Origin: Chlorobiota bacterium
GTDB lineage: Bacteria > Bacteroidota > Ignavibacteria > Kapaibacteriales > NICIL-2
DNA length: 64,000 bases
Direction: 5' to 3'
Assembly: GCA_044224515.1 (NCBI GenBank)
Contig: JBGAKH010000002.1
Coordinates: 355,817-419,816 of the forward strand
Made by a program: the position numbers and the translations under genes. The notes below the pieces were generated by a model. That model was not told where the DNA came from, ran no database searches, and was given only the letters and a program-made list of their open reading frames with translations. This document shows positions 11,787 through 21,477 of the stretch, piece after piece. The number at the start of each line of letters is the position of its first letter. The first letter of the stretch is position 1.

Positions 11787-12329
11787 ATGCTACTTGGTTT
11801 ATCATCGGGAGCGTTGGATCAGCGATTCGCAGCGCAGCGAGATTCTCTATGGTGTTGGGCTGCATCGTTACAGATGATTTTTCACCATTATGGTGTTCGA
11901 CTACCTCAAGAGCGTATTGTTAAAGAGGTGTTTGGTTCGACTCCCTGGGGTACGGCACCCAATAAACCGGCGGACTTCTTACACATAAGCAAGGTTTTGA
12001 ACAGGGGCGGAGTCGACAGTGTCGGACGACGTTTCCATGTAAAAAGTATGCTTATGCCGGGTGCTCCCAATACAGAAACGTTGGCTGAGGAGCTGTCTGC
12101 GCAGCGTCCTGTACTACTCAGTTACCAGAGTCGTCCGCGCATGAACCACGCCGTGGTCATCACGGCCATGGAACTAAGTGCACAACAGAATGGATTAGTC
12201 TTCAAGCGTATGGTTGTGAGAGATCCCAACCCCAAAGCGCAAAACCGGGCACTGAAAGGACGTCGAGAAGTGCGTCCGTCGACACTTCTGTCAAAAGCGG
12301 CTGCTCATTGGATCATCCGCGTTTGGTAA
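11787..12329 (+). CDS. Minimal papain-fold (clan CA, C1/C39-like) cysteine peptidase domain protein
   Basis: SLWCWAASLQM resembles the papain active-site CGSCWAFS. NHAVVITAM resembles the papain His motif HAVxxVGY. C-terminal HWIIRVW resembles YWIVKNSW. No signal peptide. Homology judged by eye only. Confidence 0.4.
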   Translation: MLLGLSSGALDQRFAAQRDSLWCWAASLQMIFHHYGVRLPQERIVKEVFGSTPWGTAPNKPADFLHISKVLNRGGVDSVGRRFHVKSMLMPGAPNTETLAEELSAQRPVLLSYQSRPRMNHAVVITAMELSAQQNGLVFKRMVVRDPNPKAQNRALKGRREVRPSTLLSKAAAHWIIRVW

Positions 12330-17668: not shown

Positions 17669-19330
17669 ATGAACAATAAAAACGAACTCGTTGAAATCCT
17701 CGAAGAAATGGCCGTATTGATGGAATTGGGCGACATGAACGCCTTTAAAACCAAAGCCATTCAAAACGGCGCTCGCGTGCTTGACAAAGCGTCCATCAGC
17801 TTGGAAGACGCTGCGGCAGATGCCACCCGGGCCACCCAGGCGGGACTCGGTAAAGGCATCCAGGAAATACTCCGCGAGTTTGTGAGTACAGGTGCTGTGG
17901 CGGAACACCAACGTTTGAAAACCCTCATTCCGGAAGGGGTGTTTTCATTGACCAAGCTCCGTGGTGTTGGAGCAAAGAAAGCAAAGGCTTTGCATGAGCA
18001 CTTAGGCATCAATAGTATTGGTGAACTTGAGCAAGCCTGTCGCGAAAACCGCTTACTTGAGCTCAAGAGCTTTGGCGCCAAAACGCAAGCCGCTGTCTTA
18101 GTCGCCATTGAAACGTGGAATTCAGCCCAAGGACGTCTACTCCTTCATCGCGCCACCGCGATGGCCGAGGAGCTGCGTCAAGAGTGTTTGCACCATGGCG
18201 CCGTTCGAGTTGAGCGGAGTGGAGAATTAGCTCGCTGGTGCGAAGTCATCAACGAAATCTGTTTGGTATGTCAGTCATCGGATTCGGCAACACTCTGTGC
18301 GCACTTTGGCGTAGCGGCAGATACACAAGAGATCAATGTCCTTCGCGACGGAATGCGTGTGCGAATCATCGTGTGTGGCGAGGATACCTTTGAGCGAGAG
18401 CTATTCAGATCGAGCTGTGCAGCAGACTTCCTGCGCGCATTCGAGCAAGAGTTCAGTGTTCCCGGCGGACTCGACCGTGCGGGCATATTTGCGCACAACA
18501 AATTGAGCGTCGTATCGCCTGAGTTATGCGAAGATCCTTCGATTCTGCAGCGTGCAGCCGAACACGATCTGCCGGAACTCGTCGAAAACCGTCACATGAA
18601 GGGAATGCTCCACATCCACACACACTGGAGCGATGGCGTCCATTCCTTACGAGAAATGGCACTGGAGGCTAAAGACTTGGGCTTCGAGTACATTGCGGTA
18701 TGCGACCATTCAAAGACAGCTTTTTATGCAAACGGACTCAGCGTTGACCGCGTCTTGATGCAGCATGAAGAGATTGACAAGCTTAATGCGGAGAACCTCG
18801 GTATTCGCATTCTCAAAGGTATCGAAAGTGATATCCTGAGCGATGGATCCTTGGATTATGAAGAAGACATCCTGCAGCGTTTTGATATGGTTGTGGCCTC
18901 AGTGCACTCAGCCTTCAGCCTGGCGAAAGAGGTTCAGACCCAGCGCATTATCAATGCCATTCGAAGTCCGTACACGACGATTGTTGGACATCCTACCGGT
19001 CGACTTCTGCTTTCACGTAAGGGTTATGAGTTGAACATCGAGGCGATACTCGAGGCTGCTGCCGATACCGGAACCGTAATCGAACTCAATGCCAACCCGC
19101 ATCGTTTGGACCTGGATTGGCGCTTTCATCAGCGAGCGGTGGACTTAGGAGTAAAGATTGCCATCAATCCGGACTCTCATCAATGTGCAGCACTGAAGGA
19201 AGTGTTTATCGGCGTTGGTGTCGCCCGCAAGGGCATGTTGCGTCCAAGCGACGTCCTCAATACGCTGTCCCTCAGTGAATTTCAGAACTTCTGCGCGGAT
19301 CTGCGCGTCCGCAAATCCTCTATGAACTAA
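17669..19330 (+). CDS. polX: Bacterial family X DNA polymerase (PolX) with C-terminal PHP phosphoesterase domain
   Basis: N-terminal HhH/Pol-beta-like region (GVGAKKAKALHEHLGINSIGEL). The C-terminal PHP domain has His/Asp clusters (HIHTHWSDG, CDHS, HSAFS, GHPTGR, NPDSHQ). Confidence 0.8.
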   Translation: MNNKNELVEILEEMAVLMELGDMNAFKTKAIQNGARVLDKASISLEDAAADATRATQAGLGKGIQEILREFVSTGAVAEHQRLKTLIPEGVFSLTKLRGVGAKKAKALHEHLGINSIGELEQACRENRLLELKSFGAKTQAAVLVAIETWNSAQGRLLLHRATAMAEELRQECLHHGAVRVERSGELARWCEVINEICLVCQSSDSATLCAHFGVAADTQEINVLRDGMRVRIIVCGEDTFERELFRSSCAADFLRAFEQEFSVPGGLDRAGIFAHNKLSVVSPELCEDPSILQRAAEHDLPELVENRHMKGMLHIHTHWSDGVHSLREMALEAKDLGFEYIAVCDHSKTAFYANGLSVDRVLMQHEEIDKLNAENLGIRILKGIESDILSDGSLDYEEDILQRFDMVVASVHSAFSLAKEVQTQRIINAIRSPYTTIVGHPTGRLLLSRKGYELNIEAILEAAADTGTVIELNANPHRLDLDWRFHQRAVDLGVKIAINPDSHQCAALKEVFIGVGVARKGMLRPSDVLNTLSLSEFQNFCADLRVRKSSMN

Positions 19331-19470
19331 TGGTGCCGGCTGAACGTCGCAGCTAGCGGACACCGCGTCGGTTGTATTTTTGCTGCTTGTCTTCGCTGCT
19401 AAGTCGCGAAGAGGGGAGCCGAACCACTCCTGCGCTAAACCGTTCGAACATCACCTGTAGGTCTCTATTT

Positions 19471-20682
19471 ATGACGCTGAAACACGTTCGCGAGCAGCGA
19501 CTCTTCGTTGTTGCTCTCTTATTGATTCTCATCGATCAAGTCACCAAAGTGTGGATCAAAGGATTTCACATTTTGGGTTTGGTGCATGAAGGCATGCCAC
19601 TGGAAAGCAGCAGACAGATCTTCGGCGAGTTGCTTCGCTTTAGCTACGTGGAAAACCCCGGGATGGCTTTCGGCGTGTCGTTCGGAAGCGCAAAAATCTT
19701 CCTTAGTCTCTTCTCAATCATAGCCGCCGGAGGTTTGGCGTGGTACCTCCACAAGCTGCGTCACTCGACGATATGGGTGCAACTGGGTGTGATGCTTCTG
19801 CTAGCCGGGGCGGTGGGAAATTTGATTGACCGCGTTTTCTATGGATTGATCTACAACGAAGCACCGTTGTTTTACGGCAAGGTTGTGGATTTTATCGATG
19901 TGGATTGTCCTGATTTTAGTCTCTTCGGACACAGCTATACCCGTTGGTGGGTCTTCAATGTTGCGGATGCCTGCGTGAGCTGTGGTATAACGCTCCTTGT
20001 CTTGTTCAATCACAAGATTCCAACGCTCAAGAGTCTTGACAGTCGCTTCCATGTGTCGAACGATGAAATACACATTGAGGAGTACAATCCCCAATGGGCA
20101 CATGAATTCGCAGAACTTAAGACGGTGCTGGAACGTAGCCTGGGCGGCAAAGCGCAAAGCATAGAGCATGTCGGTAGCACTTCGATTCCCGGTTTGGCTG
20201 CCAAGGCAGTAATGGATGTCGACATCGTCATCGCTGAACAGAGCTCGTTGGATGAGATTCGTACCACCCTTGAAGCATTGGGTTATGTGTATGAGGGCGA
20301 TAAAGGTATTCCCGGACGTGAAGCATTCCGTCAGAGCGACTCCATGGTTCCGCATGGTAGCGGTCACCGATGGATGCGTCAACATATGTACGTCTGTGCC
20401 TCCGACTCTCTAGCCCTGGCTGAACACCGACAGTTCCGTGAGGCGCTTCTGAACTCAAGCGAGCTTCAAGCACAATACGTGGCACTCAAACGTGAATTGG
20501 CAGAGAAGTTCCGATTGGATCGCGAAGCCTATACTAACGGAAAGGCCGACTGGATTCGCTCAGTTCTGTCCGCCGCCACTACCACAACTCCCAGTGTGGA
20601 AAACAGCCCGGAAGAAGCGTCCGACACGGCTGCAACCGACCAAAGTGACGAGTCGGAGAGCGAAGATTTTAAATCAGTGTAA
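19471..20682 (+). CDS. lspA: Fusion protein: lipoprotein signal peptidase II (LspA) fused to a GrpB-family (nucleotidyltransferase-fold) domain with acidic tail
   Basis: N-terminal half: LspA motifs ENPGMAFG, VVDFIDVD, FNVADACVS within four TM helices. C-terminal half: GrpB signature SIEHVGSTSIPGLAAKAVMDVDIV...RQFREAL...YTNGKADWI. The reading frame is continuous, 403 aa from ATG 19471. Confidence 0.7.
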   Translation: MTLKHVREQRLFVVALLLILIDQVTKVWIKGFHILGLVHEGMPLESSRQIFGELLRFSYVENPGMAFGVSFGSAKIFLSLFSIIAAGGLAWYLHKLRHSTIWVQLGVMLLLAGAVGNLIDRVFYGLIYNEAPLFYGKVVDFIDVDCPDFSLFGHSYTRWWVFNVADACVSCGITLLVLFNHKIPTLKSLDSRFHVSNDEIHIEEYNPQWAHEFAELKTVLERSLGGKAQSIEHVGSTSIPGLAAKAVMDVDIVIAEQSSLDEIRTTLEALGYVYEGDKGIPGREAFRQSDSMVPHGSGHRWMRQHMYVCASDSLALAEHRQFREALLNSSELQAQYVALKRELAEKFRLDREAYTNGKADWIRSVLSAATTTTPSVENSPEEASDTAATDQSDESESEDFKSV

Positions 20683-20836
20683 ACACTCTTAAATAGGCTT
20701 CTTAGGCTCCTTGAAAAAAAAATCTAAGAGCTTGAAAAAAATGTTTGTGTAGAAGTGAAGTCCTTTTAATTTCGCATCGAGGCTGTTCTTGAAACGCCTC
20801 CTTTCGTTGTGGTGGTGAAAGGTGAGAAGGGGAGTG

Positions 20837-20864
20837 CCCCTTGACGAGTGGTGACGTCAAGGGG
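20837..20864. promoter_or_regulatory. Perfect 10-bp stem-loop in a long convergent intergenic region (structured RNA element or terminator)
   Basis: CCCCTTGACG agtggtga CGTCAAGGGG. It is flanked by two copies of AATTTCGCATC, at about 20766 and about 20914. Confidence 0.3.
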
Positions 20865-21477
20865 TATCTCATTTCTAGCCGAACCGAAGCTTCCACACTC
20901 TCGCCTCCTTGAATTCCCCTCAATTTCGCATCCTCCACTGTCAGATTTTCTACGCTGTCCAGACTTGCTGACAAGCGCACAAACACTAGTGTTGAGGGCA
21001 ACGGCGCATCTTCAAATGTGAAATATTTGTGAAGTCACTGTGGAGAACTGTACCGTGTCGCAGGCACAACGCGAAGCGTTGTGGCTAACAAAAAATCACT
21101 CGCAGAGACGTCTTTTTATACCGGCTTGCAGCCCTTCGGGCAGCTGCGCCAAGGAGCGAAGCAGGACCTTAGCGCTTCGCTACACGGACGTTCCACATGG
21201 AAGTATCGCGTGCAGTAGCAGTGGTAGCTCTGATTGGAGGCTATTGTCCGGTATCCCGGGCTAATGTCTTCCATTCCGGGTTGTCTTCTCGATCTCCGTA
21301 GGCCTAGAGTGACAGGGACACGATTGTTTCAACGTCCGGCCCTATGCGTACAGAGGCAACGTTAACAGAGCAGTTCTCGAACGACGCATGAGCTGTGTTT
21401 TTCGACATCTGGAGCTGTGCTATGAAGAACCGAGAACAAGGTCTCAAAACCCGAGGTCAGGGCTGAATTGGTTGTCC

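Follow-up and report, generated by a model that had tools for sequence, protein, structure and literature searches.

The window, as we call the 64,000-nucleotide stretch of DNA that was analysed (positions 355,817 to 419,816 of contig JBGAKH010000002.1, assembly GCA_044224515.1, "Chlorobiota bacterium"), contains a gene, lspA-grpB, whose product joins the lipoprotein signal peptidase LspA to a GrpB (UPF0157) domain. The open reading frame (ORF) runs on the forward strand from an ATG at 19471 to a TAA at 20680–20682, has no internal stop and encodes 403 residues. Read mechanically, the ORF opens at a TTG at 19372; ATG 19471 is the start position in all orthologues of alignment A1 (nine sequences, fused proteins included), whose N termini follow the pattern M-[LT]-[LK]-x-[VL]-R-E-Q-[KR]-L-F. 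The fusion had been noticed in an earlier reading of the letters alone (the original prediction), some claims of which we take up below.

Domain architecture and occurrence of the fused protein

Both domains score far above the Pfam gathering cut-offs: Peptidase_A8 (PF01252) at residues 14–178 (E 1.5e-35; 122.9 bits against 25) and GrpB (PF04229) at residues 200–366 (E 1.1e-41; 143.2 bits against 25.5), the latter spanning positions 2–157 of the 159 in the profile. The original prediction had called for such a Pfam check, and its description of an LspA that runs without a stop into a full GrpB domain and an acidic tail is borne out. An NCBIfam scan splits the protein into the same two halves. 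The narrow NCBIfam LspA equivalog models all fall under their cut-offs (the best, PRK14788, at 112.8 against 200; TIGR00077 at 63.2 against 73.95), which is expected because the phylum is divergent. The CoaE-GrpB model PRK03333 matches residues 185–372 only, at 67.5 bits against a cut-off of 215, and a bifunctional CoaE-GrpB protein can be ruled out, the N-terminal half being LspA with no dephospho-CoA kinase domain. The product combines, in one frame, a complete LspA with an equally complete GrpB domain, followed by a disordered acidic tail in which 10 Asp or Glu residues stand against a single Lys or Arg.

The LspA half has four hydrophobic segments by hydropathy and the four-helix membrane fold with cytoplasmic N and C termini. 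All 14 of the highly conserved residues listed for Staphylococcus aureus LspA, from which the identity of the catalytic dyad is also taken (PMC6952399), are present (D22, K26, N62, G64, G113, N117, D120, R121, V138, D140, F162, N163, A165, and D166) and are invariant across A1. By alignment to the S. aureus protein, D120 is part of the conserved GNxxDR motif and lies outside the catalytic dyad, D140/D166. The motifs NPGMAFG (residues 62–68) and FNVADACVS (residues 162–170), from which, together with four transmembrane (TM) helices, a complete LspA had originally been recognized, are both in place. This half, residues 1–183, forms a complete four-helix aspartyl signal peptidase II, with its active site on the outer side of the inner membrane.

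The N terminus, the loop between TM2 and TM3, and the segment after TM4 are rich in Lys and Arg. In the S. aureus LspA structure, the C-terminal residues reach into the cytoplasm, and the catalytic dyad is located at the outer surface of the membrane (PMC6952399). Both the structure and the charged loops agree with the orientation that the original prediction had assumed and wanted examined, and the GrpB domain is predicted to lie on the cytoplasmic side. With the LspA dyad at the outer surface, the two active sites would therefore face opposite sides of the membrane.

The GrpB half, which the AlphaFold2 (AF2) model predicts with a predicted local distance difference test (pLDDT) score of at least 95 and with the three-dimensional fold of the family, keeps all residues whose conservation among the 64–68 aligned GrpB sequences is 94% or higher, and at a threshold of at least 85% (≈65 sequences) every residue is kept save for the conservative substitutions A246, M306, and E324. 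Beyond the putative nucleotidyltransferase (NTase) active-site motif, the domain retains E232, H233, R283, E284, H305, Y307, H319, R323, K340, and K358. The Asp-x-Asp (DxD) motif is kept in all seven fused proteins of A1; the same position reads D-I-Q in the CoaE-type domain of 6n39 and D-F-L in the Enterococcus faecalis GrpB 2nrk. The closest stand-alone GrpBs are ≈51% identical to the domain and come from mixed phyla; they were drawn from a protein search with the GrpB domain whose list does not include the fused proteins P0001–P0007 and which was used for stand-alone relatives only.

The fusion is real and no sequencing artefact. A protein identical to that of the window (P0001) is also present in run SRR28480385 as assembled independently in Logan, and a search spanning 5.8 billion clusters at 90% identity yielded six more clusters with both Pfam domains (P0002–P0007, at 72, 67, 64, 56, 51, and 59% identity), seven fused clusters in total. 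Each comes from a contig of its own, and several projects contributed them: the metagenome-assembled genomes GCA_044228285.1, GCA_044228685.1, and JBDHXF01, together with Logan and European Nucleotide Archive assemblies. The linker between the domains varies in length among orthologues by indels that are all in frame, so selection has kept the reading frame open. That an error in sequencing or assembly masks a stop or frameshift between two genes might be argued from the metagenomic assembly of every source and from the aberrant C terminus of P0007, which is probably truncated or frameshifted. Against this stand seven divergent clusters that share one continuous architecture across different studies and assemblers, the identical protein in the independent Logan assembly, the in-frame linker indels, and the lack of a separate grpB start or intergenic spacer, and we give the idea next to no credence.

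The architecture is as unusual as had been supposed, seven clusters among 5.8 billion and two GTDB species representatives having it. Only two of 1.84 billion representatives at 50% identity (P0002 and P0007) were matched in one stretch over both halves in an exhaustive HMMER scan, which is blind to very divergent independent fusions scoring below ≈120 bits. Twelve other matches came in two stretches. Of the 10 among them whose domains were checked, nine proved to be tandem GrpB-GrpB proteins (one with an added nitronate monooxygenase (NMO) domain), and P0081 is an unfused LspA. In GTDB, with one genome per species, two of the best 80 LspA loci are fused (L011 and L012, both "Chlorobiota bacterium"), and at all others the match stops at query residue ≈180–240. 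Among unfused relatives, the nearest carry the names Candidatus Kapaibacterium, Kapabacteria, Ignavibacteria, or Melioribacteraceae; Kapaibacterium belongs to the Bacteroidota in the NCBI taxonomy. The fusion is thus conserved but rare, within a small uncultured Kapaibacteria-like group, and gives a known enzyme a domain architecture that is new and limited to a few uncultured genomes. Run SRR28480385 (L004, L010) holds two fused lineages together, P0001 and P0005, which are 56% identical.

Features of the lspA-grpB locus and copies of the downstream RNA-like element (window positions unless a locus is named; aa, residues)
Feature	Position	Strand	Basis or detail
lspA-grpB fusion gene	19471–20682	+	403 codons + TAA; continuous ORF, two Pfam domains, start from orthologue alignment
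LspA (signal peptidase II) module, aa 1–183	19471–20019	+	Predicted; TM helices at ≈aa 9–32, 73–98, 101–127, 159–180
Asp140 codon (VVDF), first catalytic Asp (S. aureus Asp118)	19888–19890	+	Alignment to 6ryo; invariant in A1
Asp166 codon (FNVAD), second catalytic Asp (S. aureus Asp136)	19966–19968	+	Alignment to 6ryo; invariant in A1
Cytoplasmic juxtamembrane helix and linker, aa 181–199 (HKIPTLKSLDSRFHVSNDE)	20011–20067	+	AF2 helix 186–194, pLDDT 69–84
GrpB (UPF0157) nucleotidyltransferase-fold domain, aa 200–368	20068–20574	+	Pfam GrpB match
Putative NTase active-site motif, Gly235-Ser236 ... Lys245 ... Asp249-Val-Asp251	20173–20223	+	Conserved residues kept
Disordered acidic Ser/Thr-rich C-terminal tail, aa 369–403	20575–20679	+	pLDDT <50
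Promoter-like pair before the element	TTTG 20744–20747, 19 nt, TAATTTCG 20767–20774	+	
Structured RNA-like element, ≈100 nt	20775–20876	+	93 nt past the stop; blastn, alignment, consensus fold, covariation, covariance model
Further element copy	L001 7269–7370		
Further element copy	L003 7323–7424		
Further element copy	L005 7270–7371		
Further element copy	L012 5275–5376		
Further element copy	L013 4793–4894		
Further element copy	L007 1075–1176		
Further element copy	L008 6832–6933		
Further element copy	L030 3199–3298		
Further element copy	L038 4741–4840		

Genomic setting and origin of the fusion

In the window and at the loci encoding P0002 (L001) and P0005 (L003), the genes are ordered PrsW(−), fatty-acid desaturase(−), PolX-PHP(+), lspA-grpB(+), TauE(−), and PD40(+). 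The closest unfused relatives (P0011 in L008/L009 and, in part, P0009 in L007) have PrsW, PolX, lspA, PD40, and ClpB. From the matching PolX-lspA-PD40 order, we conclude that the fused gene fills the slot of an ordinary lspA. A tblastn search with the LspA half found no second lspA within the 64-kb window, and the fused gene is probably the housekeeping lspA of its lineage. There is no other lipoprotein-pathway gene near lspA-grpB, and its neighbourhood holds neither biosynthetic nor resistance genes. Scans of the surrounding DNA with Rfam and for tRNA/tmRNA gave no matches. A defence-system reading was set aside, PADLOC yielding only a 14-bit chance match.

How the two domains came together can be judged from the relatives. 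When the window and all 90 loci were searched by tblastn with the GrpB and LspA halves, neither grpB nor a remnant of it turned up beside unfused lspA, and the nearest stand-alone GrpBs sit in unrelated gene neighbourhoods; a fusion of adjacent genes is therefore unlikely, and we reject it. The unfused LspAs of the lineage are 220–260 residues in total, and 30 of 30 carry an acidic Ser/Thr/Pro/Asn-rich tail of 21–81 residues (median ≈40) behind a P-[ST]-x-K juxtamembrane segment. The figure of ≈160 residues that the original prediction gave for LspA in general does not hold in this lineage on account of that tail. The PT[LFI]K motif of the juxtamembrane segment is common to the fused protein and unfused LspAs. 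Stand-alone GrpBs have no acidic tail, ending a median of 6 residues past the domain. In the fused proteins, the juxtamembrane segment precedes GrpB, and an acidic tail of 12–35 residues follows it. The DNA just 3′ of the stop, RNA-like element included, is likewise common to fused and unfused loci. The simplest model is that a grpB segment was inserted in frame where lspA codes for the tail. In one sub-lineage of Kapaibacteria-like Bacteroidota, a segment of the stand-alone type would have entered behind the cytoplasmic juxtamembrane helix and ahead of the acidic tail typical of the lineage.

Among stand-alone GrpBs, the fused GrpB domains group as a single clade (58/100 bootstrap), whose internal branching order is similar to that in the LspA halves. 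In the LspA tree, a clade of unfused proteins with strong support (100/100) joins fused P0001–P0005 and P0007 (58/100), and fused P0006 falls outside, among other unfused sequences. We read these trees, with their weak support, as most likely reflecting one gain followed by at least one loss. A single insertion would be the most likely event, with GrpB later lost from, or never present in, the sister lineages.

Several other features of these genomes deserve mention. The upstream PolX-like gene (window 17669–19330, + strand) has HHH_8, HHH_5, and PHP Pfam matches; up to E 1e-4, neither a palm nor a thumb model of Pol-beta matches it. At 11787–12329 (+ strand), a 180-residue ORF matches Peptidase_C70 (AvrRpt2-like papain-fold cysteine protease) at E 4.6e-9, an unusual family in an environmental Bacteroidota genome. 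Two Ignavibacteria genomes carry tandem lspA pairs (L039 4001–5203; L048 4001–5220), whose copies are 40–43% and 53–55% identical to the LspA half of the window.

A conserved RNA-like element downstream of lspA

Downstream of the stop codon lies a conserved element whose DNA is 83–90% identical by blastn across loci whose LspAs share only 64–80%. It folds into three hairpins, the last of them terminator-like with a U-rich stretch after it. Compensatory changes occur at five base pairs, and several invariant G-U pairs favour the + strand. A covariance model found the element in 10 of 87 sources, always 87–116 nt 3′ of lspA and on the same strand. Both fused and unfused loci carry it, including L005, although the other neighbours of that locus differ. 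Rfam returned no match to it at E up to 1. The pair TTTG and TAATTTCG that precedes the element is promoter-like and matches the Bacteroidota promoter consensus. The element also contains CCUCCUUUC, which is likewise the sequence of the anti-Shine-Dalgarno tail of 16S rRNA. We regard the element as a candidate for an undescribed small RNA or 3′ element tied to lspA and confined to this subgroup of the Kapaibacteria.

Some 70–100 nt beyond the element, at window ≈20940–20980, there is a second conserved block, CTGTCAGATTTTCTACGCTGTC ... TTGACA, which aligns in L001, L012, L003, L013, L007, and L008 (columns ≈272–320 of alignment A4). On the minus strand, it holds a sigma-70-like promoter match (TTGTCA, 18 nt, GAAAAT).

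Possible roles of the tethered GrpB domain and comparison with known systems

The GrpB/UPF0157 domain occurs widely, its structure has been solved, and the literature enters it as an uncharacterised NTase-fold family. For no member did the literature searched give an established activity or substrate, and the GrpB papers found there concern CoaE only. LspA is an essential antibiotic target and nearly always consists of the membrane enzyme with nothing attached. With a motif-intact GrpB set at the cytoplasmic membrane face, the natural and conserved fusion would offer a concrete context in which to probe the domain. Its value is limited by the few uncultured genomes that carry it, the many unrelated partners of GrpB, and the close relatives that do without GrpB; the last also makes any fusion-based ("Rosetta-stone") inference weak.

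Our preferred reading, to which we assign a probability of ≈55%, is that lspA-grpB encodes a housekeeping LspA with a tethered, cytoplasmic, and probably active GrpB nucleotidyltransferase, the linkage serving localisation and co-expression rather than direct coupling. The product would be a bifunctional polypeptide whose LspA part cleaves the signal peptides of prolipoproteins as usual, with GrpB suspended on a tether of ≈20 residues at the cytoplasmic face of the membrane. GrpB may be a working enzyme on a cytoplasmic or membrane-proximal substrate; activity is expected because the Gly-Ser and Asp-x-Asp motifs of active Pol-beta-type nucleotidyltransferases are kept. The fusion would supply membrane localisation and 1:1 co-expression, and direct chemical coupling to signal-peptide cleavage would not be expected because the active sites face opposite sides of the membrane.

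Some results weigh against this reading. All-fused monophyly is found in 0/100 in the LspA tree, where the placement of the unfused clade has 15–58% support and support overall is weak. The predicted template modelling score of the AF2 model is 0.70, and the inter-domain geometry is not established by it. Motif retention is the whole basis for calling the domain an active nucleotidyltransferase, and the D-F-L of 2nrk shows that the family has members without DxD. Divergence is also faster in the GrpB half, with 43–60% identity within the fused clade against 64–80% for the LspA half.

This faster divergence would suit a different explanation, in which GrpB is a non-catalytic helper: a folding, solubility, or stability module or a bulky cytoplasmic cap, as in mycobacterial CoaE. 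There, the UPF0157 domain is required for soluble expression of the kinase, can be replaced by glutathione S-transferase (GST), and is dispensable for catalysis (PMC2765170, PMC13629385); the broad range of GrpB partners would likewise fit a generic C- or N-terminal helper domain. The retention, through 43–60% divergence, of every residue conserved in the nearest GrpB subfamily (GS, K245, D249-x-D251, H305, and R323 among them) speaks against it, as do the loss of the second Asp in the CoaE-type domain and the unfused LspAs of close relatives, which evidently fold without GrpB. We consider a helper role unlikely, although it deserves to be kept in view. Coupling to lipoprotein maturation, in which GrpB would regulate LspA or nucleotidylylate the positively charged prolipoprotein n-region, cleaved signal peptides, or a partner enzyme, draws on the retention of the fusion in frame across substantial divergence, which implies some gain from physical linkage, and on the location of the signal-peptide n-region on the same side of the membrane as GrpB. 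However, LspA has its active site and the cleavage site at the outer surface of the membrane, no further gene of the lipoprotein pathway lies close by, GrpB is fused to many unrelated enzymes, sister lineages lack it, and no paper in the literature searched names LspA together with GrpB. We judge such coupling rather improbable. The regulatory or modifying role in lipoprotein maturation that the original prediction proposed finds no support in the evidence here, given the catalytic dyad on the opposite side, the promiscuity of GrpB in its partners, the relatives without GrpB, and a precedent, CoaE, that concerns folding.

A more specialised proposal would make GrpB an antibiotic nucleotidyltransferase placed on LspA, the target of globomycin and myxovirescin, for self-protection or membrane positioning. 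Its evidence is purely associative, and ANT and Lnu are structurally no nearer to GrpB than are terminal uridylyltransferases (TUTases), Rel/SpoT, or CD-NTases. Globomycin and myxovirescin, moreover, bind on the outer-leaflet side of LspA (PMC6952399), remote from any ATP-dependent enzyme in the cytoplasm, and the neighbourhood is devoid of biosynthetic and resistance genes; we find this proposal very hard to credit. Taken more broadly, an active nucleotidyltransferase with a functional tie to LspA, whether through a cytoplasmic role in lipoprotein maturation or through self-protection against natural products that target LspA, seems to us rather improbable. If true, it would be the first functional assignment for the GrpB/UPF0157 family. 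We retain the tethered, probably active GrpB on a housekeeping LspA as the best account of the gene.

Set beside known systems, the fused protein differs from stand-alone LspA, represented by PDB 5DIR from Pseudomonas aeruginosa and 6RYO/6RYP from S. aureus, which lacks the 220-residue cytoplasmic extension made up of linker, GrpB, and acidic tail. Its periplasmic loops are also longer than those of S. aureus LspA, with insertions at residues 124–135 and 144–158. The unfused Kapaibacteria/Ignavibacteria LspAs (for example, P0009, P0011, and locus L013) share 64–74% identity over the LspA core, the same slot after PolX, the PT[LFI]K helix, the acidic disordered tail, and the 3′ RNA-like element; they differ in having no GrpB domain and no grpB remnant nearby.

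Stand-alone GrpBs (PDB 2NRK from E. faecalis; ≈170–185 residues, for example, P0121–P0240) are soluble, untethered, and without an acidic tail. Tandem GrpB-GrpB proteins of ≈345–370 residues are common (P0031, P0034, P0052, P0056, and approximately nine HMMER representatives). In the four named proteins, the DxD position reads D-L-D in the N-terminal copy and D-L-L in the C-terminal one, which suggests, from these residues, an active/inactive pair. GrpB homologues also occur on 1195 plasmid records, among them Escherichia (528), Salmonella (210), and Klebsiella (184), and 646 of the 1195 records are conjugative; only 251 span 80% or more of the domain. According to a preprint, plasmid resistance islands include an ORF of the GrpB family.

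Other multi-domain GrpB proteins resemble the fusion in pairing GrpB with an unrelated enzyme in one polypeptide, and all partners found are soluble. Those among close relatives comprise GNAT, APH-type phosphotransferases, AAA_18, AAA_33, chloramphenicol-phosphotransferase-like kinases, a methyltransferase, and a VanX-like peptidase. To these are added a HAD hydrolase, a low-molecular-weight (LMW) phosphatase, a uridine-kinase-like domain, RibD_C, NMO, CsaA, CoaE, and GrpB itself. A clear multi-helix membrane domain occurs only in the LspA fusions among 52 long GrpB proteins. The partner set hints at small-molecule modification; equally, it shows GrpB fusions to be frequent and not partner-specific.

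The sole GrpB fusion that has been studied experimentally is mycobacterial CoaE with its C-terminal UPF0157/GrpB domain (PRK03333; PDB 6N39), and the role described for the domain there is folding and solubility. In Mycobacterium tuberculosis CoaE, UPF0157 is needed for soluble folding of the kinase, a C-terminal GST can replace it, and no methyltransferase, phosphopantetheinyl transferase, or regulatory activity was found for it (PMC2765170). A 2026 study reports that deleting the domain impairs catalysis only moderately (PMC13629385). The partner of GrpB in CoaE is a soluble P-loop kinase and not a membrane peptidase, and where the CoaE-type GrpB reads D-I-Q, the LspA fusion of the window reads D-V-D.

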